64,000 nucleotides of DNA, from positions 161,905 through 225,904 of the forward strand of contig CAVYLQ010000009.1 in assembly GCA_963769405.1 (NCBI GenBank). Reading direction: 5' to 3'. The notes under the pieces were generated by a model that was given only the letters and a program-made list of their open reading frames with translations, was not told where the DNA came from and searched no databases. Every line of letters begins with the position of its first letter. Positions within the stretch are counted from its first letter, which is position 1. This document shows positions 7,875-46,843 of the stretch, piece by piece. The position numbers were made by a program, and so were the translations under genes. The DNA is from an uncultured Prevotellaceae bacterium (lineage in GTDB: Bacteria > Bacteroidota > Bacteroidia > Bacteroidales > Bacteroidaceae).

Positions 7875-7910
7875 TGAAGTGAATCGATAAGCATTAACTC
7901 AAATCAATTT

Positions 7911-7957: not shown

Positions 7958-7995
7958 AGAGTCTTAACAACTGCCTTCTCTAAATTCCTTTCCTT

Positions 7996-9345: not shown

Positions 9346-9363
9346 AATCTCAAATCAAGGATA

Positions 9364-28155: not shown

Positions 28156-28785
28156 CTAATTGCTCTTATTAATCAGGTTTACCACAACTTTTACCATCAC
28201 ATCTTTCTCCTCCATCCTGCTCTCAGCGATCATCAGCGTAAGGGCGACGAGGGCGTATGTATAATCTACTACTACATCAAAGAGAGCATTGCTTTCATCG
28301 GTAACAGGCACAGGTTGCTGATGGATAGTACGGCCAAGAACCTGCACGAGTTGGCGAAGTTCTCCAATCTGCTGCTTATGGATTTTATCATTCACAGCAT
28401 AGCCCTTAATGAGGTATTGCTTCAAGACATTGTTTGCCCATTGGCGAAATTGAGTGCCTCGCTTGCTATTAAAACGATAGCCGACAGAAATAATAACATC
28501 AAGATTGAACAACTTAGTTGTGATCTCTTGAGTAAATCCTTCTCTACGTCCATATTCTTCGGTATGTGCAAAATTTGCACATACCAAGGATTCATCTAAT
28601 TCACCTTCCTTGAAAATGTTTCTGATATGGCGGCCAATCACTGTTCTGTCTTTCTCAAACAACGTTGCCATCTGCTGTTGAGACAGCCACACAGTTTCCC
28701 CTTCCAACTTAACATCAAGTTGGGTCTTGCCATCTTCACTTTGATAAATAACAATTTTATTGTTCAGGTTAGCCGTTCTGATCAT
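28156..28785 (-). pseudogene. RhuM-family/Fic-DOC protein with apparent in-frame internal deletion of the Fic core
   Basis: RhuM-like N-terminus (IVIYQSEDG, ETVWLSQQQMATLF, NLDVIISVGYR, TQFRQWA) joined directly to the C-terminal helix VALTLMIAESRMEEKDVMVKVVVNLIN. No HxFxDGNKR motif. Confidence 0.7.
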
Positions 28786-29298: not shown

Positions 29299-29787
29299 AT
29301 GGTACAGAAAAAGATCATAGAACAGTTGTTTCGACGATGCTATCGGCCAATGGTACATCTGGCAAGAATCCTTCTTCATGATGATAAGGAGAGCGAGGAT
29401 GTTGTCAGCGATGTATTCTTAGAATTGATGAATAAGGATATCGTACCCAAAAGTGATACAGCCCGGGCTTTCCTGATGACAAGTGTCCGCAACAGGTGCC
29501 TGAATATTATCAGGAATCAAAACATTCAACAACGTATCCTTCATCTTTATTTACTGGATGATAAACTGGATGAACATGAAGCAGAAGAAAAGGAAGAAAG
29601 AATTCATCAGATAAGGCTGGTCATTGATAAAAAACTATCCGATGACAATCGCAGGATTCTCCTTGAACATTATCAAGAGCATCTTACTTATCACGAGATA
29701 GCCTTTCGGGAAAGCATCAGCGAGGTAGCTGTCTACAAACACCTAAAGAAGTCTTTAGATACCATTAAAGAATTAGTAAAGCGTTAA
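29299..29787 (+). CDS. ECF RNA polymerase sigma factor
   Basis: ESEDVVSDVFLEL, FLMTSVRNRCLN, LTYHEIA...VYKHLKKSL. Confidence 0.88.
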   Translation: MVQKKIIEQLFRRCYRPMVHLARILLHDDKESEDVVSDVFLELMNKDIVPKSDTARAFLMTSVRNRCLNIIRNQNIQQRILHLYLLDDKLDEHEAEEKEERIHQIRLVIDKKLSDDNRRILLEHYQEHLTYHEIAFRESISEVAVYKHLKKSLDTIKELVKR

Positions 29788-29799
29788 TAATGAACGACA

Positions 29800-30435
29800 A
29801 TGGAAAAGATTAAACAACTTATACAGATGATGGAGCATCCGGAACAATATTCGAATGACCAATGGAGAGAAATCCTGAAAGACAAGGATTGCCGGGAATA
29901 TTATCAATTGATATCAGAGACAGACAATGCCATCAATGACAAGCCCCTTTCTGATAAAGATGTCAACCGAGCACAGAAGGATTTTGAAAGCAAATATTAT
30001 CCCTCAACCTCTCATTTATTGTTATTGAAAAAGATCGCAGCAATTTTCATCGGCCTTATACTTATCTCTTGTATAGCCATAGCTGCAGTATCTATTGTCA
30101 AACACCATCAACAGACACCACCAACTCATAAGGAAATCGTAAATCACAAGATAAAAGACAGTGTAAAGACAGTAGTAATGAAGACTGACTCTGTAAAAAG
30201 AAAGTCAGGTACTGCTGGAGAAAAACGATTTGTCAACGTGTCTCTGGAGAATGTTCTTCAGCAGATAGCTGTTTACTATCATGTAAAAGTTTCTTTCACA
30301 GACGAAAAAGCCACAAAGATAAGACTTTTCTTCAACTGGAATCAGAATAACACGCTTCCCCAGGTAGTGGAACAACTCAATAATTTTGAAGAGTTCCACA
30401 TCACCTTATCTAATAATACCCTAACAGTAAAGTAA
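29800..30435 (+). CDS. Short FecR-like anti-sigma factor (DUF4974-like C-domain)
   Basis: Single TM KKIAAIFIGLILIS; C-domain FVNVSLENVLQQIAVYYHVKV...NWNQNNTLPQVVEQLN. Confidence 0.78.
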   Translation: MEKIKQLIQMMEHPEQYSNDQWREILKDKDCREYYQLISETDNAINDKPLSDKDVNRAQKDFESKYYPSTSHLLLLKKIAAIFIGLILISCIAIAAVSIVKHHQQTPPTHKEIVNHKIKDSVKTVVMKTDSVKRKSGTAGEKRFVNVSLENVLQQIAVYYHVKVSFTDEKATKIRLFFNWNQNNTLPQVVEQLNNFEEFHITLSNNTLTVK

Positions 30436-30437
30436 AC

Positions 30438-33005
30438 ATGAAAAAACTACTGATAATTCTTCTGTGTTGCTTTACCGGCATTTCTTCCATCGCCCAAAGT
30501 ATCACCCATAAATATAATAATGTGTCCATATCGGATGCACTCCAATCGATAAGTAAGGTTTCAAAAGACTACATCATCAACTTTGTCTACAATGATCTGG
30601 AAGACTTTAAGGTGACAACAGATATCCGCAATAAGAGCATTCCAACTGCCATTCGACAGATGATCGGCTTCTATCCCATTGGCATGAAGATAACCAAGAG
30701 CGGAACGGATATCAAAGGCCAGCCATTGCCTGATATGATCTTTGTAGAATACTTGCAGAAAGAAGACCGTAAAGTGATAGGAAAAATACTTGATGAGCAT
30801 GGACAACCTATGGAATTTGTCAATGTTTCCATCCTACAGCCAAAAGATTCTAGTTTCATTAATGGAGGCGTGACTACAGAAACCGGCGATTTCGTCATCC
30901 CATGCAATCCGACTAATGTGTTGCTAAAGATTTCCTATATCGGCTATCGCACCCTTTACCGCCATTTTGCATCTGCCCGTGCGGGAAATATCTCGATGAT
31001 ACCTGACGCTTACCGCATCAAAGGTGTCACAGTAAAAGGCCATCACAAAGTAGAGATGGTAGACCGCTCCGTCTATACATTCTCCGAAGAACAAATCAAA
31101 AATTCCAATCAGGCCCAGCAACTTATTGCCACTCTGCCGGGACTTCGTATCGACCGTATGCGCAACACCCTTGCCACACTCTCCGGAAAGTCACTCAAGA
31201 TTCTTATCAACGGCATTGAAGCTAGTGACAATGACCTGAAAATGCTCAAGCCCAAGGAAATCAAGAATGTGGAATACTATACGGTACCACCGGCTCGATA
31301 TGCTGATGCCGGAACACTCATTAATATCCATACGCGGAAAGCAGATGACGGCTATGCTGCCGGAGTTGATGTTATGCAGGGATTCAAGCATGGTTTCAAC
31401 AACTCTGCCATCTTTGCTAAATATAACCACGGCAATAGTCAGTTCTCCTTCGACTACAACTTCTCCTGGCGCAATGTCCCCAACTGCGATGAACAGCACT
31501 ACTACAGTTTTATGGATAATGGCAATAAAACCAACTATAACTATAAAGGAAAATATCATTTTGGCTATACCACACAAGACTTCAATCTGAAATACCTCTA
31601 TAGTCGTGACGACAGTCTGAACTTTCAGGCAAAGTTCACACCTTCCATCTTCTCTTGGTTCAATAACAGCCATAATAACATTTCGGCTGAAAACAATCTG
31701 AAATGGAAAAGCGGATGGAATGAACAGAAGCGACATCAGAACAGTTTCAGTCCTTCAATAGATCTCTATTTTGACAAGAAACTGAGTCATGGGCAGGAAT
31801 TGACCACTGATATCGTGGGCACATGGTTCCACAATCGGGAGAGCAACAATAACCAACAGTACGAAGAGCAGGAACAAGTTCTTGATGATAACATGCGACA
31901 ACACAACAACAAGTATTCTCTTATCGGCGAACTAGCCTACAGCAAGGAGTGGAAAAAGGTCAAACTCTCACTCGGTTATAAAGCAACACTGGCAAAATCC
32001 GACTTTAAGATCAGTAATGTCCTCTCCGATTATCAGGAATATCAATACCATGCTACCGACGATAAACATTATGCTTATGCACAGTTGAACGGCGACATAC
32101 TCAAAATGGGATATCGTCTCAGCATGGGTGGCACGTATGTTCATTCCGGCAATGACGACACACATTATAACAAATGGTATTTTACTCCAACGGCAGAGTT
32201 CAGCTACCCGATGAAAAACGGGATATTACGTTTGGAAGGGGATGTCAATACTGATATTCCGTCAATTGCAGACCTAAGCAATAACAGCACAGTGACGATT
32301 CCGGGATTGTACCGCCATGGCAATCCTTATCTGAAGAGCGCACAGAACAAGAGCATGAAACTATCTTATTCACTCAACACACCTTATATTAATATGGATA
32401 TCAATTTCGGCCTGAACAAGATCAATAATGCGATCAGTAACTACTACCAGTGGCAGGAGCTAAATGGAGACCGTGTCATTGTCTCCAGGCCAGAAAACTG
32501 TGATTATATGCTCGACTATGGTTTTAAAGGTGCTTTCCAAATCACTCCTTTCAAGAGTGACCTTCTTGTCTTGTCCCTGGAAACCGGCTATTTATGGCAG
32601 AAGGAGAAAAGTGAAATCATCGGAATCCATCATTATCATTATCTTCCTTTGGAATGGACTGTAGATTTCCGGAAAGGCAACTGGGGAGCAGAATATTACC
32701 AGAGGATACCCAGTAAAATCTTGAGTGGCACTAATATTGACTCTGAAGAGAACACACAAAATATCTATTTCTATTATCAGCATAAACAGTTGCATATAGG
32801 TCTTTATATTCTCTTCCCCTTTGCAGCAGCAAAGTATACTTCCGACATTCTCAGTAACGAAGTTCTTGACTACCACAGCATGAGCAAGGTAACAGAACAG
32901 GCTCGTACCATAGGCATACATATAAGCTACAATATCTTCTCAGGCAAACAGAAAGAACTACGGAAGAAAATAGACAACAAGGACAGCGACCAGGGATTCT
33001 TCTAA
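30438..33005 (+). CDS. TonB-dependent-type outer-membrane beta-barrel with N-terminal signalling (STN-like) domain
   Basis: Signal peptide; YNNVSISDAL...FVYNDLE domain; carboxypeptidase-regulatory-like domain (VIGKILDEHGQPMEFVNV, ISYIGY); plug (LPGL, ILINGI, VEYYTVPPARY); C-terminal IHISYNIF. Confidence 0.8.
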   Translation: MKKLLIILLCCFTGISSIAQSITHKYNNVSISDALQSISKVSKDYIINFVYNDLEDFKVTTDIRNKSIPTAIRQMIGFYPIGMKITKSGTDIKGQPLPDMIFVEYLQKEDRKVIGKILDEHGQPMEFVNVSILQPKDSSFINGGVTTETGDFVIPCNPTNVLLKISYIGYRTLYRHFASARAGNISMIPDAYRIKGVTVKGHHKVEMVDRSVYTFSEEQIKNSNQAQQLIATLPGLRIDRMRNTLATLSGKSLKILINGIEASDNDLKMLKPKEIKNVEYYTVPPARYADAGTLINIHTRKADDGYAAGVDVMQGFKHGFNNSAIFAKYNHGNSQFSFDYNFSWRNVPNCDEQHYYSFMDNGNKTNYNYKGKYHFGYTTQDFNLKYLYSRDDSLNFQAKFTPSIFSWFNNSHNNISAENNLKWKSGWNEQKRHQNSFSPSIDLYFDKKLSHGQELTTDIVGTWFHNRESNNNQQYEEQEQVLDDNMRQHNNKYSLIGELAYSKEWKKVKLSLGYKATLAKSDFKISNVLSDYQEYQYHATDDKHYAYAQLNGDILKMGYRLSMGGTYVHSGNDDTHYNKWYFTPTAEFSYPMKNGILRLEGDVNTDIPSIADLSNNSTVTIPGLYRHGNPYLKSAQNKSMKLSYSLNTPYINMDINFGLNKINNAISNYYQWQELNGDRVIVSRPENCDYMLDYGFKGAFQITPFKSDLLVLSLETGYLWQKEKSEIIGIHHYHYLPLEWTVDFRKGNWGAEYYQRIPSKILSGTNIDSEENTQNIYFYYQHKQLHIGLYILFPFAAAKYTSDILSNEVLDYHSMSKVTEQARTIGIHISYNIFSGKQKELRKKIDNKDSDQGFF

Positions 33006-33157: not shown

Positions 33158-36100
33158 TTAGTTTTTTGGCGGTTCTATAGGGAATGCCATTTCCTGTTTC
33201 GGCTTTTTGAAATAACATTCAATATTCTCTACAATAAGTGCTCTCGGCGAAATAATCGTCGAACCTATACGACCTATAATTGTGTTCTGAACATTTTCTT
33301 CTTTTGACATCGCTATAATATGCAACAAGTCACCCTTGCTTAGAGTCGGAATTTCTTTTACCCTTACCAGTTTTTCCTCACCTGTGACAGCATTAACTCG
33401 ATACAAACAGGGGGTAAGTCCCGAAGGCTGACGTACTATATATGTAACTTTCAATCCCTTTTCTTTTGCTTCCTTGCAAAGTATCTGCTTCATCTTATCA
33501 AATGGTTTATCTGCGTCGCCATACATTCTCAGAATGCCCGGAGCTACTCCTGTACCTATCGTTTCAGGGTCATCAAAGAATCGGTCATTACCAGTGCTTT
33601 GCAAGCAGTTGAGCGCTGGATACCTGCCACAGATTAGCTGCTTAACAAATCCTCCACTCAATAGACTCAATGTTTTAGCAGGTACAACACCGTCGGCATC
33701 GCAACTGAAATTTCCTATCAGTCTCATCGAGTTGAATACCGGCATATCTGTCAGTTGGTCGATGTTGAGGTGTTTGTCAAAAATCCTCTTGCCTACTAAC
33801 AGGCTGGAGGTACCACTATTATCCTGAACCGTTCTCTTGACTGTGAGCAAAGGCACAATGAGGTTGCTTACGGTGTTGCTTATCATATCGTCTTCGTACA
33901 TGATTGGACCTACGTAATAGTCGTTCAGAGCTTCAGACTGATGTAACTTAACCAAACGGTCGGCAAACTTCTTTACCAAGTCAATCAACTTGTCGGAATC
34001 AAGTTCCTTGTCAGAACATACGATACGATCGATATGGTCTGAAATCTCTGAACCATCTGGTGTACGTACACTGGCGTATGCAGTAAGTTCTACAAAACCG
34101 TGTAAACTCTTCTGCTTGATATTCTCGGACGTCTCACGATAGTTTACTGTATTCTTGCTCAATATATTTACACTAGTATTGTAAAGGTCCGGGTACTTGG
34201 CGAATATAGCCGACAGGCGCTTACCAAGGCCTTGCAGATAAGAATACGAAATCGTATCCTGGCTATCCTGCTGTATGTATACACTAGGCTTCATAGTGAG
34301 CATGTCGGGTATGCCAACCTCTTCTTCCGGCATAGGATTGTTAGCCAGAAAATTCATCTTGTTTGACATCACGCCCAAACTATATTTGTACATATAATCA
34401 GAAGCCTTCCACAACTCTCTGCGTATATTATTATAGTCTACCGTGTTAGTACAAGATATAGGACAAACCTGCCCCGATTGCATATCACTTAAGCGTAGTG
34501 AATCACCCACAGCTATATTTACACTTCCTCGTGTTACTATAGGATAATGTTCAGACAATAATAACCCACCTAGTGACGAAGAAATGTATGCCTGACTGAC
34601 ACGGGCTATATTATAGTTGACATAGCAAGGCATGGGATAACCTGGATAAGAGATATTCACATTGCGTTTCATCTCATCGTCCATAGCTTTGAAAATAATA
34701 TTATCCTCATTCCTGTCAGTGGCGCTAGAAACCTCAGGAGCCGGAAGAATGGTAGGCTTCTGCAAATCCAACTGTCTCCGTTGTGTCTCAATTTTTGAGA
34801 CATAAATCATTGGTGAACTTGCTGTTACCGGTACCCAACCAGACTCTGCCCCACATTCGCCTGTGAATGTACTAGTCTGATTACCGGCCGCCGAAATGTT
34901 AGAGAACATTGAAAGTGGTGTACCGATCAAATCGACTCCACGAACCAACTGGTCAGGACGTCCGTCTACAAACACGCGATAAACCTCAAGTGGCGTGACA
35001 TTGAAAGAATTGAGGGTTCCGTTCTCTCCTGTAAGAGTAAAGCCGCTGGTAACGGTCCTAAAATAATATCCGTAAGCCTTACCTTGCTTACGAGCCTCTT
35101 TTACAAGCATCGCACGGAGTTCAGCCTCTGTATATGGCTTTGTTGTTTCTACTATCAAGTTAGACTGACGAGAAACAGGGTCATTGCCACCCTGAGTTCT
35201 ACCATGACCATTGCTATGAGGGAAACCGTCGATAGGTACACGACTCATCAAGAAGTTTCTCAATATACCATGTTCAACACAGGTTACCCTTTGGGCCTTA
35301 ACGCCTTCATCATCATACTTATAATATCCGTTAAGATCAGAATTACCATAATGAGTAAGAGTTGGGTCGGAATAGACATTGAAAGTAACAGGCAGGACAC
35401 GTTCGCCAACCATTTTTTTGAAAGTCTGTCCACCTTTTTTCAGACGGTGACCTTCAAGTCTATGTCCGAAAATCTCATGAAAGAATACCCCGCTGGCAGG
35501 ACCCGACAGAATAGCCGGGCCAGTGTATGGGTCGGCTACAGGCGCAACCTTCAATGCCAAAAGGCGCTGAATCATGGCCTTGGCATCGTCTATCATTTTT
35601 TCTTGAGAAGGCAGTTTGTTAATATCGTAAGCGAAATAATCCCAATGCAGAGGACACGACATTCCGTCCAGGGCTTTAACCGATGCAGATACGAGTATAC
35701 GTACAGCTTTACGGTTTTGTACCACGATAGTACCATCTGTATTTACGAGATAGTTTCTGTCTATCTCAAAAGCCATATCGGCCTTACCAGTCTCTATATC
35801 CTTACAGCCAAGAAATACACGAGTAACAGCATTAAGCCTGTCTTTCCAGGTATCAATATCTATCTTATACGCACTCTGCGGTAGCGGCTGCTCATAATAA
35901 GTTTCCCGTGGAGCATCCGAGAAGCAAGGGGCCTTATCCTCATCAGCAGTGCTGGTGAGGGCCTCAGACTTAGCCTGATCATAATTACTCTTGGCTATCT
36001 GATAACGCCTCAGAACTTCCTTCCATATAGCCTGCCTCATACCAGGTATGACCATGCCATCGATAGGGACTGCTACACCTTTACCATCACGTTGCTTGCT

Positions 36101-36418
36101 TCCGCTACCTTGATTCTGATATTTAAAATTGTCGAGTTCTTTTGAACCCAATCTGATTTGCGGTGTCAGCATTCGCTCATGATTTCTATCAACGGATGTA
36201 GCGCCTAGATTGCTCGAAATGACAGTTTTGGTAATATCTGCCAATCTGAAGCTCATGAAATATGGCGGATTGGTCTCTTTTTGCAGTTGCGACATATCGT
36301 ATTTCAGTTCACTCTTCATAGTGCTGACCAACGAGTCTTTCTCCAATGTCTGAGCACTCAATGTAAAGACACTCAAACATGAGAAAACAACTGATATTGA
36401 TATTCTGTTAAATCTCAT
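33158..36418 (-). CDS. Exported tandem TldD-TldE(PmbA)-like metalloprotease, single chain
   Basis: 1086 aa with Sec signal. Module 1 has HExxxH (FFHEIFGHRLEGH), DDEGV, GHGR and SRQSNL. Module 2 repeats the architecture (KAMDDEMKRN..., DADGV, GNDR) without HExxxH. Confidence 0.82.
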   Translation of the reverse strand: MRFNRISISVVFSCLSVFTLSAQTLEKDSLVSTMKSELKYDMSQLQKETNPPYFMSFRLADITKTVISSNLGATSVDRNHERMLTPQIRLGSKELDNFKYQNQGSGSKQRDGKGVAVPIDGMVIPGMRQAIWKEVLRRYQIAKSNYDQAKSEALTSTADEDKAPCFSDAPRETYYEQPLPQSAYKIDIDTWKDRLNAVTRVFLGCKDIETGKADMAFEIDRNYLVNTDGTIVVQNRKAVRILVSASVKALDGMSCPLHWDYFAYDINKLPSQEKMIDDAKAMIQRLLALKVAPVADPYTGPAILSGPASGVFFHEIFGHRLEGHRLKKGGQTFKKMVGERVLPVTFNVYSDPTLTHYGNSDLNGYYKYDDEGVKAQRVTCVEHGILRNFLMSRVPIDGFPHSNGHGRTQGGNDPVSRQSNLIVETTKPYTEAELRAMLVKEARKQGKAYGYYFRTVTSGFTLTGENGTLNSFNVTPLEVYRVFVDGRPDQLVRGVDLIGTPLSMFSNISAAGNQTSTFTGECGAESGWVPVTASSPMIYVSKIETQRRQLDLQKPTILPAPEVSSATDRNEDNIIFKAMDDEMKRNVNISYPGYPMPCYVNYNIARVSQAYISSSLGGLLLSEHYPIVTRGSVNIAVGDSLRLSDMQSGQVCPISCTNTVDYNNIRRELWKASDYMYKYSLGVMSNKMNFLANNPMPEEEVGIPDMLTMKPSVYIQQDSQDTISYSYLQGLGKRLSAIFAKYPDLYNTSVNILSKNTVNYRETSENIKQKSLHGFVELTAYASVRTPDGSEISDHIDRIVCSDKELDSDKLIDLVKKFADRLVKLHQSEALNDYYVGPIMYEDDMISNTVSNLIVPLLTVKRTVQDNSGTSSLLVGKRIFDKHLNIDQLTDMPVFNSMRLIGNFSCDADGVVPAKTLSLLSGGFVKQLICGRYPALNCLQSTGNDRFFDDPETIGTGVAPGILRMYGDADKPFDKMKQILCKEAKEKGLKVTYIVRQPSGLTPCLYRVNAVTGEEKLVRVKEIPTLSKGDLLHIIAMSKEENVQNTIIGRIGSTIISPRALIVENIECYFKKPKQEMAFPIEPPKN

Positions 36419-37498
36419 TATTTCTGATTTATTAAAGAATTGATAGCCTCTTGCTTTGACTTAGACTCGTAAGTCGATGTGTCGGCACATTTCTTAAGAT
36501 AATTCATAACCTTCTTCTGCTGAGCAGTGTTCATCTTCTTATACTTACTTAAAAGTATGCTTTCAAGAATACCCTTGAAGGCATCATTACTAGGAAGGTA
36601 TCTTACCGTTTGCTCATAGAATCTTATCATCGTATCGTAATCTTTCTCCATCACATAGAGTGCTATTCGGGGAAGATACGACTCGGCATCGTCAACAGGC
36701 AGTTCAAGCATAGCTGTTATAAAAGCTGCCTTTCTTACATCGTCCAATGTATAATTGATTGGACGTTCATCGGCCACCAAATACATTGGCTTACGATAAG
36801 TATCAAAAATCATCTGGTTAACGACCTCACGACCAAGATACTTATCCATCTTGTACTTGTCGAGCATAAGATGGTCAAAACGTGGAGATCTGAAATCAGT
36901 AGTAGCGAAAACGAGTTCAAGGTATTCGCGTGAATAACGCTGCGACTCCCACGGATTTTTGTACATCTCGTCGAGTGTAGGAGTCGGGTCTTGTCCGTGG
37001 TCTATCTGTGCTTTAGCCAATTTCATACCGTTATCGTAATTTGGTTCCTTATCAAAGGCCTCTTTCAGGGCAATAACCGAATTATCCGGCTTTACGGCTT
37101 CTACCATGCGAGCTACAGAAATGTTGCGGCATCGAGCGAACCACCTGTAAGACGATTTATTTCTTTACCGTCAGCATCCATGATTATAAATGTAGGATAA
37201 GACTGTACCATGTATTTCTTAACAGTTGTACGCCTTCACCTTTCTCCATATCCACTTGTATGCATACAAACTTACCATTGAAGTAATCACCACATTCTTT
37301 TTGCGGGAATATCTCATGAGCCATTCTTGCACATGGTACGCACCAAGACGTATAACAGTCCATGAATAGCATTTTATTTTCTTTCCTGGCTTTAGCCAAG
37401 GCTTCCTTGAAGCTTACTCCCTTGACAAAGTCCACTCCTTGAGCAGAAGCACCAATTGCCGTAAGAATAAGCATCAGTATAACAAGAGTTTTTTTCAT
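36418..37498 (-). pseudogene. Exported thioredoxin-domain protein with helical C-domain, split by two frameshifts
   Basis: 37498-37184 gives signal + DCYTSWCVPC. A frameshift near 37222 continues KKYMVQSYPTFIIMDADGKEINRLTGGSLDAATF. A second near 37118 joins VARMVEAVKP (ORF 37107-36418). Confidence 0.8.
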
Positions 37499-37511
37499 CT
37501 CAATGCTATTT

Positions 37512-38873
37512 TTATTTTTTTAATTCAGCCTCCAACAACTGTTTCAGAGCAGGATCAGAAGGACGTGGAGCATTGGTATTTACAGTTTTTCCAGTCTTAG
37601 AGAATACCATAAACCTTGGTATCTCAGTAATCTGATAATCACTTACCAACGGCCCCTTTCTATACGAAATCAACTGTACGCCGCCCATATTCTTGTCCTT
37701 AAGCATCTTTTTCCATGCAGCACGATCCGTATCAAAAGAAGCGCCTATGAATACAATATTCTTATGAGCAAATTCTTTTTCAAGCTCCAGCAAGTAAGGA
37801 ATCTCTTTCTTGCAAGGAGGACACCATGTAGCCCATACGTCAACAAGAACGACCTTTCCCTTGAAATCAGAAAGTTTTCTCTTTTTGCCATTCGCATCCT
37901 CGTAGGCAAAATCTATCCAGGGATTTCCGGCTTTGTTTACCATGTATTTTCTTAACAGGTCTGCTCTGCGCACTTTCTGCTTCGGTGTTACGAAACTGCT
38001 AGCATAACGTTTACAAACTACATCTGCGCTATCAAGCAAATTTCTCTCCATAGCCGACAGGATAACTTCGCCACGCAATTCTGGACATGTGATGTACTTC
38101 AACTCCCAAGGAAGTGTAGGACCCATGATGAAATTGTAAATAAAAGTTTTGGCAAAAGCATAATTCAACATCAAGTCGAAAGGTTGTGGAGAATAATGCC
38201 ATACATCCATACTGTTGTATACATCCTTACTCAAATAATCCTGAATATACTGTGGATAATCCTGATGTCTAGGCCATTCTATACCATTCATGAACACCGA
38301 AGTGATATCATACTGCAAAAGGAAAGGCATGGCCTTCTTCATGTAAGCATCGAATGACACATTACCTGTATTGATACCGGATATCAACTGCTGAGCAAGA
38401 GTTGTAACACTGTCGATTACAACATGATAACGCTGAGGGGTTGCCTTGCGGCCTGCCAGAGAATAATCTAAAGTTCTAAGAGGAGAAAGGATTTCGAACC
38501 ATCTTGCGATAAGCTCATTCTCTTTACCGATTTTGCCGCTGAATTTAATATTTCCTCCTTCTACATTTATATTGATCGAATCTTTATCACCTAGATACAC
38601 AGGATAAAACTCACCATCAGCACCTATATAAGAAACTTTGTTCAACAATCCGGTTTCAGAACCTATATTCAGACTGAATGATTTATCATAGCTTCTCAAA
38701 GCCGATCCAGCTTTTTCTTCCAGTTTGCCATTTATATTCCGGCAGATAACAATGGACGTACTCCTTTGATTATCAATGATAATCTTGTTGAACACACCTC
38801 CTATATGAGCTGTCTGAGCTCCGCAGGTTGTGGTTGCCACTAACATGGCTAAAGATAAAATACTTTTTCTCAT
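37512..38873 (-). CDS. TlpA/ResA-like thiol-disulfide oxidoreductase
   Basis: Signal peptide; C-terminal LSDFKGKVVLVDVWATWCPPC...YQITEIPRF...APRPS. Confidence 0.88.
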   Translation of the reverse strand: MRKSILSLAMLVATTTCGAQTAHIGGVFNKIIIDNQRSTSIVICRNINGKLEEKAGSALRSYDKSFSLNIGSETGLLNKVSYIGADGEFYPVYLGDKDSININVEGGNIKFSGKIGKENELIARWFEILSPLRTLDYSLAGRKATPQRYHVVIDSVTTLAQQLISGINTGNVSFDAYMKKAMPFLLQYDITSVFMNGIEWPRHQDYPQYIQDYLSKDVYNSMDVWHYSPQPFDLMLNYAFAKTFIYNFIMGPTLPWELKYITCPELRGEVILSAMERNLLDSADVVCKRYASSFVTPKQKVRRADLLRKYMVNKAGNPWIDFAYEDANGKKRKLSDFKGKVVLVDVWATWCPPCKKEIPYLLELEKEFAHKNIVFIGASFDTDRAAWKKMLKDKNMGGVQLISYRKGPLVSDYQITEIPRFMVFSKTGKTVNTNAPRPSDPALKQLLEAELKK

Positions 38874-38882
38874 CTTAATGTT

Positions 38883-39810
38883 TTACTTTAAACTGTTAAT
38901 TATATTTTGTATGATTGTGTATTTCTGCATGATATATGGATATTTACCATACAATTGCGTAAATTCATCTTGACTATATGTACATGCTGCCTCTACATAC
39001 ATATTAACATCCATCCATGTGCTTGAAGGTGTATAATAGCTATTGGCTTGGATCTGTATCCAAAAAACCAACTTCTTGAACGGTAGGATGCTCCATATCG
39101 TCAGGATCGGCTCCTGTAACATACTGTCTGAGCTGTCCCGTATACATATTATATATATCTTTCTGCGGACTAAGACTCCTTGATACCTGATAGAATTTAG
39201 CCAATAATGAAGAATACGCATCTTGATTCAATATATAGTCAGACAAAGCAGAACGCAATATTGCACCCTTCATTTTCTTCTTTTCTGTTTCATCCATGGT
39301 AGCCAATCTGGAAGTATTGGCTATAACCAATGTATTTAGTCCTTTGAAAGCATAAGAACCGAAAGCAGAACTCGTCATCTGGTCTACCAGAAATAAGCTC
39401 TGTATGTGTATCGACTTAGGTAAAGCTGGCATTATATCCTGTCGAAGATATCTTAGGAAAGCCGGTACATTTGCCCTATTGGTATAAGTGAAATTATCAA
39501 CTATAGGAGAAGAACTGGCACTGGCCATACCACCCATCGAATAATTCAGAGTAAGTGTCTCATAATGAATATATTCGTGATGGAACACATCTACACGCTG
39601 CTGCGTTCCTATCGTATCGTTTGTAAATACCGGTATTCCAAAATCTTTATAGAAAAGATATATGGCATGACTTACAGAGTCACTCGGATTATCATCTACC
39701 ACATACCAATTCTTATCATAATCGGGAAAGTCCATCGTCTCTTCTTTCTGACAAGCCCAAAGCGAAAGAAGTGCAATCCCCAAAAGCAATATATTTCTAA
39801 GTATCTTCAT
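38883..39810 (-). pseudogene. SusCD-associated surface lipoprotein, frameshifted near the C-terminus
   Basis: Lipobox LSLWA-C followed by QKEE. An extra base at CCAAGCC (about 39048) stops the ORF at DTDPSQ*; the other frame continues ANSYYTPSSTWMDV...YPYIMQKY to 38883. Confidence 0.75.
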
Positions 39811-39821
39811 CTATTTATGAT

Positions 39822-41420
39822 TTATTTGATTATACTACGATTATTACGCATTAGGTTTGTAATAGAACCACGGTTAAACTCGATAGTAGCGTTAGGTACC
39901 GGGACCACCCATGCGCCCTGATCTTTGTTATACGACTGGAGTACATAATATCCGGTAAGGAAGTTTACATTCGAATTAGCATCATACGTATAAGCCGGGT
40001 GCTTGATAGTGAAATCGGCAGACAAAGGGAATTTACTGTTTACAGAATAACGGCGCAAGTCGAACCAGCGATGACCCTCAAAACATAATTCAAGACGACG
40101 CTCTGTTCTGATAAAATTGACCAGTTGCTTCTGGTCTGTCGGAATATCATTCAATTGAGCTCCGGTTATTCTGTTAGCCCTCAAATTCTGTAATGTAGTG
40201 CGTGCGTCATCAATTTTGCCCATCATGGCAAGAGCTTCAGCCTTATTGAGCACGACCTCGGCATACCTGATACAGAATATATCCGAAACGAGTTCAGGAT
40301 CATTATAAGTCCGCCAAGTCTTATACTTATTAGGCAACGGAGCATGATTTACAGACGATTCTTTGAAGAATACTTTTCGGCGCAAATCGTTAGAGTTGTA
40401 TTTCTCGATCAGGTCGTTAGAAGCCTTAAAACAGCTAGCCCTATCGTTATCCCCATTCCATGCCGAAACAGAGTCGTTGATAAATACCGCTGCTGTAATA
40501 TTGCCACCTACTGTAAAAATAACTTCTTTAGAAGATCTGCCAAGGAAATTTGGGCTATTACCAAATGTTCGTAAATCTGTAAGAGAATAACTAAGATCGT
40601 TGAATGCATTCGAGGCGTCTATTACATCCTGATATTTCTCCATGTATAAAGCTACCCGACTCTGAAGAGCTTTGACAGCACCAATACCTACACGCAGTTT
40701 CGAATCAGGCGTATAATTGCCAATATTCTGTTCTGCTGACTTAAGGTCGGCCCAAATCTGATTATAGACCTTCTCATTGGTAGAACGTGTAAAATACTTA
40801 TCCTCTACATTTGGAGATGTCTTTAATGGCACACTGAAGTCTTGCGCAGCTGAAGCTGGAGAATAAGGCAATCCATAAACATTAGCCAGATAGAAGTAGT
40901 ATAAGGCACGCAAGAAATAAGCCTCGCCACATATATGATCAAGGAGGACCTCTTCTTTGGGATTCTTACCTTTTAAATTTTCTCCCTGATAGATAATAGA
41001 GTTAATGACACCTATGCAGGCATATAGTTTAGTCCATTGTGTATCATTCCATTGCTGAGACTGCACATTAGAGCATGGATTGGTACTCCAGTTGGCCATA
41101 GCGCTCAACATATAATAAGGTGTGCCCTGGTCGGGAGTGACATAATCTTGCAAGAAAGCCTCGGCATCATCATCCATAAGCTGAAGCCATGGAAAATGCA
41201 TACTATTATTATCTGCTGATGCCAAGAATGTTTTATCCATTGTTACCTGATTAGAAATAGAGGGTTGATAAACACCAAGAAAACCCTGTCCTACCATTAG
41301 TAAATTAAGATCGTTGGCGGTTTCGCAATAACGTTGGTCAGTAGAATACTCATCAAGAAAACCACTACATGAAATGAAGAGTATTGAAAATAAAAAGACA
41401 CATATTAATAACTTTTTCAT
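39822..41420 (-). CDS. SusD/RagB family lipoprotein
   Basis: Lipobox FIS-C; GEAYFLRALYYFYLANVYG; RYAEVVLNKAEALA; ERRLELCFEGHRWFDLRR. Confidence 0.93.
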   Translation of the reverse strand: MKKLLICVFLFSILFISCSGFLDEYSTDQRYCETANDLNLLMVGQGFLGVYQPSISNQVTMDKTFLASADNNSMHFPWLQLMDDDAEAFLQDYVTPDQGTPYYMLSAMANWSTNPCSNVQSQQWNDTQWTKLYACIGVINSIIYQGENLKGKNPKEEVLLDHICGEAYFLRALYYFYLANVYGLPYSPASAAQDFSVPLKTSPNVEDKYFTRSTNEKVYNQIWADLKSAEQNIGNYTPDSKLRVGIGAVKALQSRVALYMEKYQDVIDASNAFNDLSYSLTDLRTFGNSPNFLGRSSKEVIFTVGGNITAAVFINDSVSAWNGDNDRASCFKASNDLIEKYNSNDLRRKVFFKESSVNHAPLPNKYKTWRTYNDPELVSDIFCIRYAEVVLNKAEALAMMGKIDDARTTLQNLRANRITGAQLNDIPTDQKQLVNFIRTERRLELCFEGHRWFDLRRYSVNSKFPLSADFTIKHPAYTYDANSNVNFLTGYYVLQSYNKDQGAWVVPVPNATIEFNRGSITNLMRNNRSIIK

Positions 41421-41434
41421 ACTATACTATTCCT

Positions 41435-44400
41435 TTATATCACGAAGTTAATGTTAAATGTAAAAGTAGGACGTATAGAAAGGTTGATCTGTGGAGACGA
41501 ACCATTCTGAGTAGGGTCCTGACCCTTTAATTTGCTACTGCAAATTGTGAAGAGGTTGTTACACACCAGGCTCACATAAAGAGACTGCAATCCCATCTTT
41601 CTTACCAGTTTTTCTTCCACATTATATCTGAAAGCAAGTGACTGTAATTTGAGATAATTGCCACTGACAACTCTGATATTAGAATTGTCGTACATATCAT
41701 ATATTGATCCTGCAAATCTGTATGCACTGGCGGAATAATCTTGCCACCATGGAGTATTAAGAGTACTGCTTGCTACAAGACCTGGAATATTAGTATATGC
41801 CTCATCTCCAGGTTTACGCCAACGGTAGATAAATTCTTTACGCAAGTTCTGCTGAGGATAAATCACACTAGAAGCATAGCCTGAACAAATTTTCAACAGA
41901 CGTATCTTATTACCCAAAGAATATGTAAAATTAAAAGACAAACCGAAGTTGCCGTATCCTAAATAGTTGTTTACACTACCCTGTATATAAGGTTCACGCT
42001 GACCAGATTCTTCCATAACTTGCATAAACACCTCATCGGGAGTCATATTGGCATATTTAGCCATAAGAGCAGCCTTGTTAGCATCTTCTGCTCCGTAGAA
42101 GATAGGTGAACCGTCTTTAGGACTTAATCCCTCAAACTTATAAGAATAGAATGTACTTATAGGTTTATTAGACAACTCTACATTACCTGTAAGATAGTCG
42201 TTGTAAGTAACCACATCATGCATTGTATGTGTCTTATTGTTGATGGCACGGTTGATGACCTTATTCAACACCTCACCAATCTGAGGATCAATACGCCATA
42301 CAAATCCGCGTTTACCTCCGCCAATGTTAGCATTATTGATAGGAGTAAAACTCAAAGAGATCTCAACACCCTGGTTGTTTAAAGAACCACCATTCACCAC
42401 ATATTGGTTGATACCATTAATATCCGAAATGGTCTTTGTCAAGAAAGCATCTTTTGTATGCTTGTAGAAATAAGAGAATGTACCACGTATCTTATTATCA
42501 AGAAGGATAAAGTCAAGACCAACATTATAAGATGAAGTCTTTTCCCATTTCAAATTCGGGTTAGGATATCGATATATTGTGGCATAATTAGAATTATATA
42601 TTGGGTCGGTAAGCGTAGATTGCTGGATAATCATCTTAGCTGTCTGTCCAGGCAACATGTTTCCTTGCCATCCCCAAGAAGCTCTCAAGGAAGCATCATC
42701 AACCCATTTGGTATTCTTTAGAATATTTTTCTTCATATTCCATCGTCCAGAAACAGCCCAGATAGGAGAGAACTTCTCATTGGCTCGTGAACCGAAAAGA
42801 TTAGATCGTTCAGCACGTAGATGCAGATTGAATATATAGATGTCTTTAAAACCATAACCGGCTGTAGCATACCATGCCAGTTCATTAGTCAATTGACGTG
42901 TTCTATAACCCAAAGCTTCTTTACTACTCATAAACTGTGAATAATATCCACTATCATCTGTTGGTACCGCATCAAAATAACCTCCGAACTCTGTAAAATA
43001 ACCACGACGTGTAATATCAAAACCTTTATATTCGGTAGATTTAGCTTCAATACCCGCAGAAGATGTGATAAGATAATTACCTTTACTACCAAGAGTTTTC
43101 ATAAAGTTGGCTTGCAGACGTACTGTATAGTCGTCATTCTTAGTATCCTGACGTTTCAACTCTCCACCTACAGGACACTGGTCCCAACGAGGAGTCTGAT
43201 CACCTCTTAAATTATATATATAATATGTATCTTTAGTATAATATTGTTCACGAGTTGTATTAGAGATATTATATGCCAGAAGTGCATCGATATTCAGACA
43301 AGACAGAATACCGTATCTAATCTGCGAATGCATGCTGATGCCATTAGTTTCAGAACCATCACCAGAATTGGCCATCTCGTTTAGGATATTAAATTCATAA
43401 CGCTGACCAGTTGTATTAACTTTAGGATAATAGAATAATGATCCATCAGAATTATAAGCAGGCATGGCTCTGCTGGTATTATAAGCGTAATCCATTACCC
43501 CAAGTTCTTGAGGAGAGTATTTACGCTTAGAATAGTTGGCTTGCAACTGGAACTGTGCATTAAATTTTCTATACGTTGCTGTCAAGTTGAGCATACTGGA
43601 ATAACGCTCATTTTTCTCTTGTTTGATAACTCCATTTTCTATACCATACCCAAGTGAAGCATAATATTTTATATTAGGAGAACCACCAGAAAGGCTCACT
43701 GTATGATTGTGTGAAAAAGAATTGTGTGTAAGCAATCCTAACCAATCAGTATTGACAGAACGATAATAGTCTGACTCCTTTTTAAAATCTGAATAATTCA
43801 ACTTTCCACTATAATAATCCTGAACAGCTTGTTCATAGCCAGACCACTGAGTCACATTATTATAATACATCTTTCGGTCTATAAGTTCCTGACTGACGTC
43901 AGTACGCTCTGCCGAGTTCATCATATATACATCACGGTCAGAATACCTAGGCCGGCTAGTATAGGTAAAGTTACCATTATAACTAATAGAGGGCTTGCCT
44001 ACGGTACCCTTCTTTGTCGTAATCACAATAACACCATTACCGGCTTTTGCGCCGTAAAGAGCCGTGGCTGAAGCATCTTTTAAGACATCAATCTGCTGAA
44101 TATCATTCGGATTCAATCCCGATATAGCATTACCCAAAAGATTAACGAAGTCCGGATCATTAATCTGTTGAGGATCAACGTTTACAGGGTCAGAAAGAAC
44201 TATGCCATCAAGTACCCACAACGGTTCGCGGTTACCAAGAATAGTTGATGTACCACGCACACGGAGACTAGGAGATGCTCCAACCTGACCTGAATTCTGC
44301 GTGAATATCATACCTGGTACTTTACCTTCAAGCATCTGATCAATGGTTGTCATTCCGGGGTTATTGATATCCTCCATTTTAAGAGTTGTAACTGCCGAAG

Positions 44401-45037
44401 TTAGTTTTGAGCGGTCAATGGTCTGATATCCTGTTATGACCACATCATCTACAGGCTTTATATCTTCTTCCAGCATAACATTGATAATAGGACTATTGCA
44501 GACAATAATTTTAGTTTTCATACCGATAAAACTAAACTTCAAAGCATCCTCCTCATGTACACTGATACGATAATTACCATCAGCATTAGTTATGACACTC
44601 TGCTTCCCACCTACTATACTGATGTTTACACCTGGAAGAGCTTCCTTGTTTGTATCAGTTACATGACCATAAACCAAAACTTCTTTCTTCTGTAACATTA
44701 TCCTGCGAATTACTGCGGTATGCCCTTGCCATACAACTTCAAGCCCCATTGGTCTATATAATCTTTCCAAGAAAGAACTTACCGTCTCATTTCGTGCAGA
44801 TATTGAGGCCTTCTTATTCCGAAGAAGTGCTGTGTTGTATATATAACTAATACCTGTTTTCCCCTGTACATTCTCCATAATAGAGGTAACCTTTGTATTT
44901 TTAAAGTTACATGTTATTCTCTCATTCTGTGCCAACACAAACTGTAACGAGCAACATAACATACCTAAAGACATAATAAGTTTTTTCCTTCTCAGCAGCC
45001 TATAGAGAAGCCCTAAACGTATTGATTTCTTCTTCAT
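41435..45037 (-). CDS. SusC/RagA family TonB-dependent transporter with N-terminal STN extension
   Basis: GNREPLWVLDG; IDVLKDASATALYGAKAGNGVIVITTKKG; NPNLKWEKTSSYNVGLD; SGNYLKLQSL; terminal FNINFVI. Confidence 0.95.
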   Translation of the reverse strand: MKKKSIRLGLLYRLLRRKKLIMSLGMLCCSLQFVLAQNERITCNFKNTKVTSIMENVQGKTGISYIYNTALLRNKKASISARNETVSSFLERLYRPMGLEVVWQGHTAVIRRIMLQKKEVLVYGHVTDTNKEALPGVNISIVGGKQSVITNADGNYRISVHEEDALKFSFIGMKTKIIVCNSPIINVMLEEDIKPVDDVVITGYQTIDRSKLTSAVTTLKMEDINNPGMTTIDQMLEGKVPGMIFTQNSGQVGASPSLRVRGTSTILGNREPLWVLDGIVLSDPVNVDPQQINDPDFVNLLGNAISGLNPNDIQQIDVLKDASATALYGAKAGNGVIVITTKKGTVGKPSISYNGNFTYTSRPRYSDRDVYMMNSAERTDVSQELIDRKMYYNNVTQWSGYEQAVQDYYSGKLNYSDFKKESDYYRSVNTDWLGLLTHNSFSHNHTVSLSGGSPNIKYYASLGYGIENGVIKQEKNERYSSMLNLTATYRKFNAQFQLQANYSKRKYSPQELGVMDYAYNTSRAMPAYNSDGSLFYYPKVNTTGQRYEFNILNEMANSGDGSETNGISMHSQIRYGILSCLNIDALLAYNISNTTREQYYTKDTYYIYNLRGDQTPRWDQCPVGGELKRQDTKNDDYTVRLQANFMKTLGSKGNYLITSSAGIEAKSTEYKGFDITRRGYFTEFGGYFDAVPTDDSGYYSQFMSSKEALGYRTRQLTNELAWYATAGYGFKDIYIFNLHLRAERSNLFGSRANEKFSPIWAVSGRWNMKKNILKNTKWVDDASLRASWGWQGNMLPGQTAKMIIQQSTLTDPIYNSNYATIYRYPNPNLKWEKTSSYNVGLDFILLDNKIRGTFSYFYKHTKDAFLTKTISDINGINQYVVNGGSLNNQGVEISLSFTPINNANIGGGKRGFVWRIDPQIGEVLNKVINRAINNKTHTMHDVVTYNDYLTGNVELSNKPISTFYSYKFEGLSPKDGSPIFYGAEDANKAALMAKYANMTPDEVFMQVMEESGQREPYIQGSVNNYLGYGNFGLSFNFTYSLGNKIRLLKICSGYASSVIYPQQNLRKEFIYRWRKPGDEAYTNIPGLVASSTLNTPWWQDYSASAYRFAGSIYDMYDNSNIRVVSGNYLKLQSLAFRYNVEEKLVRKMGLQSLYVSLVCNNLFTICSSKLKGQDPTQNGSSPQINLSIRPTFTFNINFVI

Positions 45038-45097
45038 CTAGTAATAATTGTTAAAAAATTAATCTCTCTTAATTAAGTTATTATATTATTTATTCGT

Positions 45098-46201
45098 TCA
45101 TTTTATTATAATGGTCTTGTTGTGTATTTCATATTCAAACTCTTGAGTAAGCCCTATTACCTTCATGAAGTCTCCTACTGATTCTGTACGCTTGCACTCA
45201 CCTGTGAATCTTATATCACGTACATCTTTTTGATATACTACTTTTACATCATAAATTCTTTCTATATCGTCCATTATATCACAAAGACTGTCATCAGTAA
45301 AATAAATAAAACCATCTTTCCAGGCCGCTGTCTGTTTATTGTATATTTGGTTGACGCTTATCTGATTACCTGATTTCACAATCTGTTCGCCAGGCGACAA
45401 CTCTACTTTACGTCCATTATTTTCATAACGAACCTTACCTGTATAAAGTGCAATGCTTGCCTTATCACCACTATAAGCACATACATTAAATGTAGTACCC
45501 AGTACATTAACAGCTCCTGCAGGACATGTAACTTTAAAAGGACGTCCGTCTTTCTTCACTTCAAAGTAAGCCTCTCCTCTTAAATAAACTTCTCTTGTAG
45601 AAGTGAAATGATTGGGAAATCTCAAGGTAGAACCTGAATTAAGACTTACCATACTGCCATCAGGAAGTGATACTTGATATTGGCGCCCACAAGGAATAAC
45701 AAGTTCTAACATCTCTACCGGAACATTGTCTCCATCATCATTGAGAGCAATAGAACTTTGTCCCACAGTTGCACTCAAACCAGCCTTAGTCAAATTTTGG
45801 CCGGCTTTAGAAAGAACAACAACCTTGCCATTAGCTAATCTTATCATAGGTAATGAATCAGATAGTGCAGGGATTTTCTTTTTCAACATCGCAACAACTT
45901 CAGGGCTTTGCTGTTGTCTTGTATAATGAGGATGAAATAAGAAAAAGGTTATCAATAACATTGCTGCTACTGCCCCAACAGTAGCAAACTTCCAATAGGA
46001 ATTGTTTTTGAAAGAATGCACTTTACTTAAAAACTGATTATAAGCAACATCTGTATTAACTTCCAAATAAGCATGAATACGATCAGAGACTTTCTTACTA
46101 TTGTAAAAGGCTCTCACCGCTTTCAACTTATCATCACTTTGCGGTTCATCCTTCTCAATGGATTCAACAGCTTTAAAGAAGTCATCTTTTAATTCTTTCA
46201 T
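45098..46201 (-). CDS. FecR family anti-sigma factor
   Basis: TM, then LPDGSMVSLNSGSTL, VYLRGEAYFEV, VLGTTFNV, AWKDG, IERIYDV. Confidence 0.92.
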   Translation of the reverse strand: MKELKDDFFKAVESIEKDEPQSDDKLKAVRAFYNSKKVSDRIHAYLEVNTDVAYNQFLSKVHSFKNNSYWKFATVGAVAAMLLITFFLFHPHYTRQQQSPEVVAMLKKKIPALSDSLPMIRLANGKVVVLSKAGQNLTKAGLSATVGQSSIALNDDGDNVPVEMLELVIPCGRQYQVSLPDGSMVSLNSGSTLRFPNHFTSTREVYLRGEAYFEVKKDGRPFKVTCPAGAVNVLGTTFNVCAYSGDKASIALYTGKVRYENNGRKVELSPGEQIVKSGNQISVNQIYNKQTAAWKDGFIYFTDDSLCDIMDDIERIYDVKVVYQKDVRDIRFTGECKRTESVGDFMKVIGLTQEFEYEIHNKTIIIK

Positions 46202-46309
46202 ACTTTCACTCTTTTAATGTTATTATGCAAAAAACAAAAAAAGTATTACTGAAAATAGGAAAAAGATGACAAAAAAGTGTTTCTATAGTCGAAACAATAA
46301 CATTATGAT

Positions 46310-46843
46310 CTAAAGAAAGAATAAAATTGGGTTATCTTTTGTAGCTTTTCTAAGGGAATCCATGGCTTTTGCCTTTACAGCTTTTACTGTATTTACACTA
46401 ATATTCAACATTTCGGCTATTTCTTTGCCACTCTTACCATCTATAGAAAGAAGCATTATTTGTCGTCTTCTCTCTGGAAGCTTTTGTATTTCTTCATATA
46501 GACGTCTAACAAGTTCTTCCTTAACTGTCTCTGAAAAACTATCATCAGTCAACTGCAGATCCATATTATCTGTTATCTCGACATGTTCACGGGTTTTTCG
46601 AAGATGATACAAGGAATTATTATATATAGCTTTATAAAGATAATAAGTAAGGTGTTTTTGAGAATCAAATTTATAGTCACTAACCCAAAGGTTAAGAAGT
46701 GTTTCTTGTACTATATCTTTGGCTAATTCCAAATCATGCAGATAGTTCGTTGCATAACAACATAAAGGCGCATAATATACATCAAAAAGAACTTCCCAAT
46801 TCTTTTCGTCACGCGCATTTATTTTCTCTATTACCAAAGCCAT
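46310..46843 (-). CDS. ECF sigma-70 factor (Bacteroides expansion type)
   Basis: YYAPLCCYA, AKDIVQETLLNLW, LPERRRQI, KEIAEMLNISVNTVK. Confidence 0.92.
   Translation of the reverse strand: MALVIEKINARDEKNWEVLFDVYYAPLCCYATNYLHDLELAKDIVQETLLNLWVSDYKFDSQKHLTYYLYKAIYNNSLYHLRKTREHVEITDNMDLQLTDDSFSETVKEELVRRLYEEIQKLPERRRQIMLLSIDGKSGKEIAEMLNISVNTVKAVKAKAMDSLRKATKDNPILFFL

Follow-up and report, generated by a model that had tools for sequence, protein, structure and literature searches.

What might a SusC/SusD outer-membrane pair import when the genes that travel with it encode two thioredoxin-fold oxidoreductases and an exported protease, with no recognisable carbohydrate-active enzyme (CAZyme) among them? 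The question is raised by a locus in a 64,000-nucleotide stretch of DNA, which we refer to as the window, from contig CAVYLQ010000009.1 of an uncultured Prevotellaceae bacterium (assembly GCA_963769405.1). Open reading frame (ORF) listing and domain scans delimit a block of eight co-oriented genes on the minus strand, running from 46843 to 33158 in the order extracytoplasmic function (ECF) sigma factor, FecR, SusC, SusD, a lipoprotein of an unannotated family that we call Lipo308, a TlpA-like protein (TlpA453), a thioredoxin-like protein (Trx360) and a TldD-TldE fusion. The gaps between consecutive genes are 108, 60, 14, 11, 9 and 13 nucleotides (nt), and the last two genes are coupled by a TAATG overlap at 36418, in which the TAA stop of the thioredoxin gene shares letters with the ATG of the protease gene. 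The gene types, their order, strand and coordinates, and the TAATG coupling are all as given in a preliminary description of this DNA; its view of the eight genes as one unit is borne out for gene set and order and not for intactness, as the lipoprotein gene contains one frameshift and the thioredoxin gene two. The description had also held that glycoside hydrolases, lyases and esterases are missing, and indeed none of the eight products matches a family of these enzymes or a carbohydrate-binding module (CBM) in Pfam or NCBIfam. Judged by these two libraries, of the two parts that make up a polysaccharide utilization locus (PUL), namely SusCD and CAZymes or glycan-binding modules, the first is present and the second is not. 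Our preferred answer, to which we give an even chance, is that the cassette may be induced by its own substrate, a disulfide-bonded peptide or small protein, and may import it, reduce it in the periplasm and cleave it by proteolysis.

The strongest arguments for this proposal come from related loci. Relatives of the protease occur at 584 loci or more in the genome collection, of which 80 were fetched and their neighbouring genes clustered. The order ECF-FecR-SusC-SusD-Lipo308-TlpA(~450)-Trx(~360) is kept in all ten distinct loci that contain Lipo308, the window included, and no CAZyme domain is found by Pfam or NCBIfam in any of these ten window-type copies, which come from two orders. TldD/E, fused or split, is the last gene in the window and in L012, L065, L079 and L100, with 42% identity for the L065 protease and split proteins in L079 and L100. 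In the other five (L093/94, L095/96, L097/98, L101 and L102), which come from Sphingobacterium, Pedobacter and related sequences, the last gene encodes a 297-amino-acid (aa) trypsin/HtrA-like serine protease. The last position is always held by a protease, exchanged for another and never lost, and the substitution of an unrelated protease at a fixed position argues that what the last gene contributes is proteolysis. A metagenomic protein of 1235 aa (P0065) has a redoxin domain fused to the N terminus of a TldD-TldE fusion, and its gene is preceded by one for a 389-aa DsbH-like thioredoxin protein (both genes, L092 1838-6732). Taken together, the protease swap and the redoxin-TldD/E fusion suggest that a single imported substrate is both reduced and proteolysed. 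A related arrangement is seen in L013 and L018, which contain SusCD, DUF4843, PKD_2, two TlpA genes and TldD/E, with an M16 peptidase in L013 only.

The two oxidoreductases belong to TlpA/ResA and DsbH/DsbD-gamma, which are known as periplasmic reductant families. TlpA453 (37512..38873, minus strand; 453 aa) has a signal peptide and a redoxin domain with the motif WCPPC, within VWATWCPPC. Its residues 314-437 match Redoxin (E 2e-17), AhpC-TSA and Thioredoxin_8, and its closest PDB entries, 2LJA, TlpA 1JFU (E 2e-18) and ResA, are reached through this C-terminal domain only; the N-terminal domain of about 300 aa has no match in Pfam or PDB. As an exported redoxin-fold protein with a CxxC motif it can be assigned to the TlpA/ResA type, although it scores below the equivalog cut-offs.

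Trx360 (36418..37498, minus strand; broken in the window, as described below) consists of a DsbH/DsbD-gamma-like thioredoxin domain with the motif WCVPC, within YTSWCVPC, followed by an all-helical C-terminal domain, and matches Thioredox_DsbH (E 1e-11) and Thioredoxin_7. The AlphaFold2 model of an intact orthologue has a predicted local distance difference test score (pLDDT) of 92, and by Foldseek its thioredoxin domain matches 2KUC (44% identity), a disulfide isomerase-like protein of B. thetaiotaomicron, as well as DsbH 2JU5 (E 1e-5) and DsbD-gamma 1UC7 (E 6e-5). At whole length the orthologue matches YbbN/CnoX 3QOU over 303 columns (E 2.8e-5), with a TM-score of just 0.26-0.32 and a root-mean-square deviation of 20 Å, so that the likeness is one of architecture only: in both proteins an N-terminal thioredoxin domain is followed by a helical repeat domain. 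CnoX is cytoplasmic and has GroEL and DnaK as partners (PMC8129009, PMC10998233), whereas Trx360 is predicted to be exported. The Trx360 domain also resembles the DsbD-like part of the TsoB selenoprotein; the selenocysteine that this match brought to mind is rejected, as the active site simply reads CVPC and frameshifts explain the stops.

Both proteins share with the known TlpA/ResA and DsbH/DsbD-gamma reductases the redoxin or thioredoxin fold, the WCxPC motif and an export signal, and the genome also encodes a DsbD membrane domain (78.5 bits) that might supply them with electrons. They differ from them by their extra domains, the 300-aa N-terminal one of TlpA453 and a 230-aa helical C-terminal one in Trx360, and by the position of their genes inside an import locus, not with cytochrome or copper maturation genes. 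The leaders of TlpA453, Trx360 and the TldD-TldE fusion are of the signal-peptidase-I type ending A/Q, and all three proteins should therefore be periplasmic.

Thioredoxin-fold proteins need not act on a protein, and one may ask whether the cargo is a redox-active or thiol-reactive small molecule or a metal (a disulfide, polysulfide, selenium compound, cofactor or copper), with the protease confined to an accessory or quality-control role. The TlpA/ResA family is known from copper-centre and cytochrome c maturation, Trx360 has the likeness to part of the TsoB selenoprotein noted above, and SusCD-like systems are reported also to import non-glycans such as cobamides. However, such a role is difficult to reconcile with a protease that is replaced and never lost at the end of every cassette, with a redoxin domain fused directly to TldD/E, or with a cassette lacking metal-binding or cofactor-handling genes, and we regard it as improbable.

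The proposed degradation of a reduced substrate draws on what is known of TldD/E. The last gene (33158..36418, minus strand) encodes an exported TldD-TldE (PmbA-like) fusion metallopeptidase of 1086 aa that matches PF19289 and has catalytic motifs in its N half and none in its C half. The N half resembles E. coli TldD 5NJ5 (E 9e-16) and contains HEIFGH (314-319) and Cys522, which do not vary in sets of 15 and 14 homologues. A profile-profile comparison shows the C half to be a paralogue of the N half over its full length (536 columns, hhalign probability 100, E 8e-84); both the HExxxH motif and the Cys are missing from it, which gives the arrangement of a TldD with an inactive TldE. This comparison settles the status of the C half, as the isolated TldE half returns nothing or marginal matches only from Pfam, NCBIfam and PDB. 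The fusion has a Sec-type leader (...TLSA/QT), and in many relatives the halves are two adjacent genes, each with its own signal peptide. Its scores against the TldD equivalogs, 86 bits for NF040952 (cut-off 635) and 49 bits for NF008006 (cut-off 513), lie far below the cut-offs, which together with the signal peptide points to a distinct exported TldD-related subfamily.

The metal site, HExxxH with a C-terminal Cys, and the paralogous inactive TldE partner are shared with E. coli TldD/TldE. The E. coli enzyme forms a closed shell with a narrow channel that admits unfolded chains only, in agreement with the preliminary description, where cleavage was said to be limited to unfolded chains threaded into TldD/E; it acts on the microcin B17 precursor and CcdA (PMC5810440). 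In the window the two parts are fused in one chain (two genes in relatives), each half is some 80-100 aa longer, and the protein is exported whereas that of E. coli is cytoplasmic. A closed-chamber geometry for the exported fusion is thus assumed by analogy with E. coli TldD/E. Elsewhere, in a Prevotella metagenome-assembled genome (MAG), tandem full-length TldD-TldE fusions of 1096 and 1099 aa stand amid arginine/proline biosynthesis genes (L048 9992-17022).

The regulatory and transport genes at the other end of the block are of the kind seen in PULs under ECF-sigma/anti-sigma control, with which the locus shares the ECF sigma factor, FecR, an STN-extended SusC, SusD and a lipoprotein gene right after that of SusD. 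The first gene (46310..46843, minus strand) encodes an ECF-type sigma-70 factor of 177 aa with Sigma70_r2 and r4_2 domains (TIGR02985, 125.8 bits), and the second (45098..46201, minus strand) a FecR-type anti-sigma factor of 367 aa (PF04773 and PF16344, E about 1e-18). SusC (41435..45037, minus strand; 1200 aa) is a SusC/RagA-family TonB-dependent transporter (TIGR04056, 611 bits, cut-off 368) with the SusC/RagA signature TIGR04057 (59 bits, cut-off 46.2) and a plug (E 7e-16), the latter preceded by a carboxypeptidase-regulatory-like domain and, at the N terminus, an STN-like extension. The STN match in the window is weak (E 0.002, below cut-off), and the domain is recorded in the orthologues from L093, L097 and L101; with these records all the elements of a trans-envelope signalling unit, an ECF sigma factor, a FecR protein and an STN-bearing transporter, are accounted for. 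Going by sequence, these three form such a unit, of the kind that is ordinarily induced by its substrate.

SusD (39822..41420, minus strand; 532 aa), encoded 14 nt downstream of susC, is a SusD/RagB-family lipoprotein by its domains (PF07980, 85 bits; PF14322, 75 bits) and its lipobox FISC, and SusC, SusD and Lipo308 are the predicted outer-membrane components of the system. In L012 (about 4100-4160) a run of seven G, which reads GGCGGAGG in the window, divides the SusC orthologue into parts of 923 and 278 aa, and either an error in the assembly of this MAG or a phase-variable tract could explain it.

The best solved relative of SusC is ButC of Bacteroides fragilis (8YPU; E 7e-96), matched over residues 197-1198 and thus over the whole barrel, while the next-best solved match, the levan SusC, is partial (E 2e-58), and RagA of Porphyromonas gingivalis (6SLI; E 4e-44) is matched in the N-terminal part only. 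SusD in turn has ButD (8YPT_A; E 4e-28) as its best solved relative, so that among solved structures the pair is nearer to ButCD than to BT1763 and other glycan transporters. RagAB is likewise a SusCD-type outer-membrane importer, one that carries oligopeptides, not glycans, although it is much less similar to the window's SusC than ButC is. The rag locus is not known to include reductases, a dedicated protease or control by a sigma/anti-sigma pair.

ButCD is a SusC/SusD pair whose locus, like that of the window, is without polysaccharide-degrading genes, and it imports a folded ubiquitin-like toxin, BfUbb, the disulfide of which matters for toxicity; its authors see it as a putative protein-nutrient system (PMC11467351). 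The ButCD locus has a gene for a ZnMc metallopeptidase, which is lacking in the window cassette, and no thioredoxin-fold protein, TldD/E or ECF/FecR pair is mentioned for it (PMC11467351). The similarity to the window pair, although the best in PDB, is remote.

This likeness raises the question of whether the cassette has to do with toxins, either because the same machinery neutralises disulfide-stabilised antimicrobial peptides or bacteriocins in the periplasm, or because a nutrient importer matters mainly as a gate for toxin entry. It would fit with ButCD being the route by which BfUbb enters, with the dependence of BfUbb toxicity on a disulfide (PMC11467351), with the action of E. coli TldD/E on the microcin B17 precursor and CcdA (PMC5810440), and with a cassette of patchy distribution and repeated decay that in L097/L098 has mobile-element genes nearby. 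Importing a toxin in order to destroy it would, however, be costly and unusual, and substrate-induced control through ECF, FecR and STN is better suited to the acquisition of a nutrient. Inspection of the flanks also finds no toxin or immunity gene adjoining the locus. We therefore consider a toxin-related role to be unlikely, and favour import for reduction and proteolysis.

The lipoprotein gene (38883..39810, minus strand; frameshifted, giving 256 aa plus about 50 aa in another frame) directly follows that of SusD in every locus inspected. Its product has the lipobox LWAC, and the anchor Cys is followed by QKEE, which we take to agree with the surface-export signal of Bacteroidota. By sequence Lipo308 has no match in Pfam, NCBIfam or PDB; the AlphaFold2 model is confident (pLDDT 89), and Foldseek finds no significant fold match for it in PDB (best E 0.22). 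The possibility that Lipo308 is a dead peptidase was considered and dropped, as the zincin matches (Ste24, PPEP-1/3, an M34-family metalloprotease and BT4244) are scattered, weak and non-significant. The family comprises 53 clusters at 90% identity and, by profile search, 669 clusters at 50% identity, and a remote relationship (hhalign probability 97.5) links it to another unannotated family of lipoproteins encoded after SusD, found in Butyricimonas loci.

From these elements we can outline how the cassette might work. The cargo would be caught at the cell surface and passed through SusC, and in the periplasm its disulfides would be reduced by the TlpA-like and DsbH/DsbD-gamma-like proteins with DsbD as the source of electrons. 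Once unfolded, the chain may be held by the helical domain of Trx360, in the manner of the tetratricopeptide repeat (TPR) domain of the chaperedoxin CnoX, and it would then be threaded into the closed TldD/E chamber and cut to short peptides for nutrition. As to the cargo, one can speculate about dietary, defensin-like or RiPP-like (ribosomally synthesised and post-translationally modified) peptides.

More broadly, we tentatively suggest, with somewhat more doubt than confidence, that this is a dedicated Bacteroidota pathway for disulfide-protected proteins, composed of a surface lipoprotein and a ButCD-like SusCD pair, two DsbD-fed reductases of which one is a periplasmic counterpart of CnoX, and an enclosed-chamber protease, TldD/E or interchangeably a serine protease. 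Such a pathway would be the reductive-unfolding counterpart of glycan PULs, and would provide a first physiological role for exported TldD/E, for the unannotated lipoproteins encoded next to SusD (about 670 clusters) and for many TlpA-like genes in SusCD loci. The cassette offers a testable model for how Bacteroidota could use protease-resistant, disulfide-stabilised proteins and peptides, with plant protease inhibitors, storage proteins, host defence peptides and bacterial toxins as candidate substrates. Non-glycan SusCD importers are already known; here a SusCD importer would be joined to disulfide reductases and a protease for unfolded chains. No published description of a SusCD locus that combines TldD/E with thioredoxins came up in a literature search, in line with the preliminary description, whose author was not aware of a characterisation of this gene set.

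Several observations weigh against this reading. Among the 52 TldD/E loci with at least 5 kb of upstream sequence, a co-oriented SusC lies within 8 kb in 13, and a TlpA-type domain is nearby in eight; TldD/E thus travels with SusCD loci repeatedly but not invariably. Many other copies stand amid arginine/proline biosynthesis genes or beside trxB-metH, and with so many loci in housekeeping contexts a constant linkage of TldD/E to SusCD is ruled out. The likeness to ButCD, remote as it is, singles out the best among few solved SusCD pairs, and Lipo308 and the N-terminal domain of TlpA453 are without a recognisable fold or ligand in the sequence libraries and, for Lipo308, by Foldseek. We infer from family membership alone that the redox direction is reduction, rather than isomerisation. 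In addition, two of the eight genes are frameshifted in this genome, where the system may be without function.

The idea of capture, import, reduction and degradation put forward in the preliminary description therefore gains from the conserved cassette with its swapped protease, the redoxin-TldD/E fusion, the reducing families, DsbD, the likeness to ButCD and the lack of CAZymes, and loses by the limited linkage, the housekeeping contexts and the frameshifts. The same division applies to the synteny of susCD, tlpA and tldD/E to which that description had pointed, where the cassette is conserved and a general linkage of tldD/E to susCD is not found.

Other observations on this side of the balance bear on whether the locus is, after all, one for a glycan or glycoprotein, using CAZymes encoded elsewhere, with the protease and reductases doing no more than trim the polypeptide of a glycoconjugate, for example a mucin-like or plant glycoprotein. 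Most SusCD loci under ECF/FecR control serve glycans, and to our knowledge almost all characterised SusCD systems, RagAB and ButCD apart, handle glycans. A second recurrent context of TldD/E, found in nine loci, for example in Segatella copri (one locus) and in Butyricimonas, has the order FecR-SusC-SusD-DUF4959-DUF4998/F5_F8_type_C-TldD/E (upstream of position 10001 in L016, L026, L028, L034, L039, L041, L045, L058 and L067), and the DUF4959 and DUF4998/F5_F8_type_C (discoidin, CBM32-like) proteins of these paralogous loci are typical of glycan loci. The protease is the sole enzyme gene of this arrangement, and in L016 a TlpA gene directly follows it. Two relatives, L034 and L063, also encode a distant alpha/beta-hydrolase resembling an esterase. 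On the other side, the ten window-type cassettes from two orders are devoid of CAZyme and CBM domains by Pfam and NCBIfam, oxidoreductases and proteases are the only enzymes that recur, as they are the only enzymes of the window locus, and ButCD resembles the SusCD pair more than the glycan transporters do. On balance a glycan or glycoprotein locus seems to us unlikely, if slightly less so than a role in toxin handling or the uptake of a small molecule or metal, and the import and degradation of a disulfide-bonded peptide or protein remains our preferred explanation.

The alpha/beta-hydrolase itself is 412-466 aa long and is encoded after a thioredoxin gene in L034 (15478-16875, minus strand) and between thioredoxin genes and TldD/E in L063 (about 7800-9900). 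It has no Pfam match and a likeness to polyhydroxybutyrate (PHB)-depolymerase-type esterases that lies below the NCBIfam cut-off (49.7 bits), and it could be an esterase or a peptidase.

Does the cassette function in the genome in which it was found? In the lipoprotein gene, tblastn with an intact 308-aa orthologue places a switch of frame between 39049 and 39035. The thioredoxin gene is spread over three frames (37498-37217, 37223-37116 and 37116-36421), made up of a 104-aa ORF (37184-37498), about 35 codons and a 229-aa ORF (36418-37107), and tblastn with an intact 359-aa orthologue recovers residues 1-94, 93-128 and 128-359 in these frames, each at about 90% identity. L012 comes from a Prevotella MAG, and its TldD/E protein shares 94% identity with that of the window; relative to this locus, the thioredoxin gene has lost 1 nt near 37222 and gained 2 nt, TA, near 37115. 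Programmed frameshifting or recoding is rejected as an explanation, as the two indels differ (1 nt and 2 nt) and the orthologues read straight through. Both proteins are intact in orthologues, at 308 aa and 359 aa, and whereas the broken products are found on the window's own contig only, most members of the same 90% clusters are intact.

There are thus three uncompensated indels within 2.3 kb, none of them in a homopolymer, and the frameshifts imply that the cassette is probably impaired or newly inactivated here. We lean towards the view that the locus in this genome is a decaying, non-functional remnant, produced by a real and recent inactivation, a view that is compatible with any of the functional readings. 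The indels break two genes that close relatives keep whole. In a related Prevotella MAG (506,538-bp contig) the thioredoxin gene has been split independently, giving products of 93 and 253/263 aa, and at least 18 contigs from close relatives, one of them 3.17 Mb in length, encode TldD/E proteins cut short at 399-403 aa. Assembly errors may nevertheless account for the indels, and the other six genes are intact. The broken segments are also about as similar to L012 (some 90% identity) as the neighbouring intact genes, so that any inactivation must be recent.

A patchy distribution accompanies this decay. The lipoprotein, used as a marker, is present in three of 401 sampled Bacteroidota genomes and in two of 180 genera, and the protease in three of the 25 genomes of the genus. 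In L097/L098 (17361-20924, metagenomic) a serine-protease cassette with an extra TlpA gene adjoins relaxase, type IV secretion system (T4SS) coupling-protein and MobC genes. This neighbourhood, the 45-50% identity between the lipoproteins of Prevotella and Sphingobacteriaceae, and the rarity of the cassette suggest horizontal transfer. The cassette thus looks like a rare accessory trait that is often lost and possibly transferred horizontally, and the repeated decay, together with a distribution that is patchy and perhaps mobile, suggests that the trait is specific to certain niches.

The flanks of the block are unrelated to it. A scan for sigma-70 promoters and terminators gave no usable information for this Bacteroidota locus. 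Upstream lie ATP-binding cassette (ABC)-transporter and GntR genes. Downstream, and convergent with the block, is a separate signalling trio on the plus strand (29299-33005) that encodes an ECF sigma factor of 162 aa, a FecR_C protein of 211 aa and a TonB-dependent outer-membrane protein of 855 aa; the last has an OMP_b-brl_3 domain and a weak plug match, and no SusD gene follows the trio. RhuM genes are often located on mobile or prophage-like islands, and a gene of this family (PF13310) lies about 4 kb from the locus at 28156-28785 on the minus strand.

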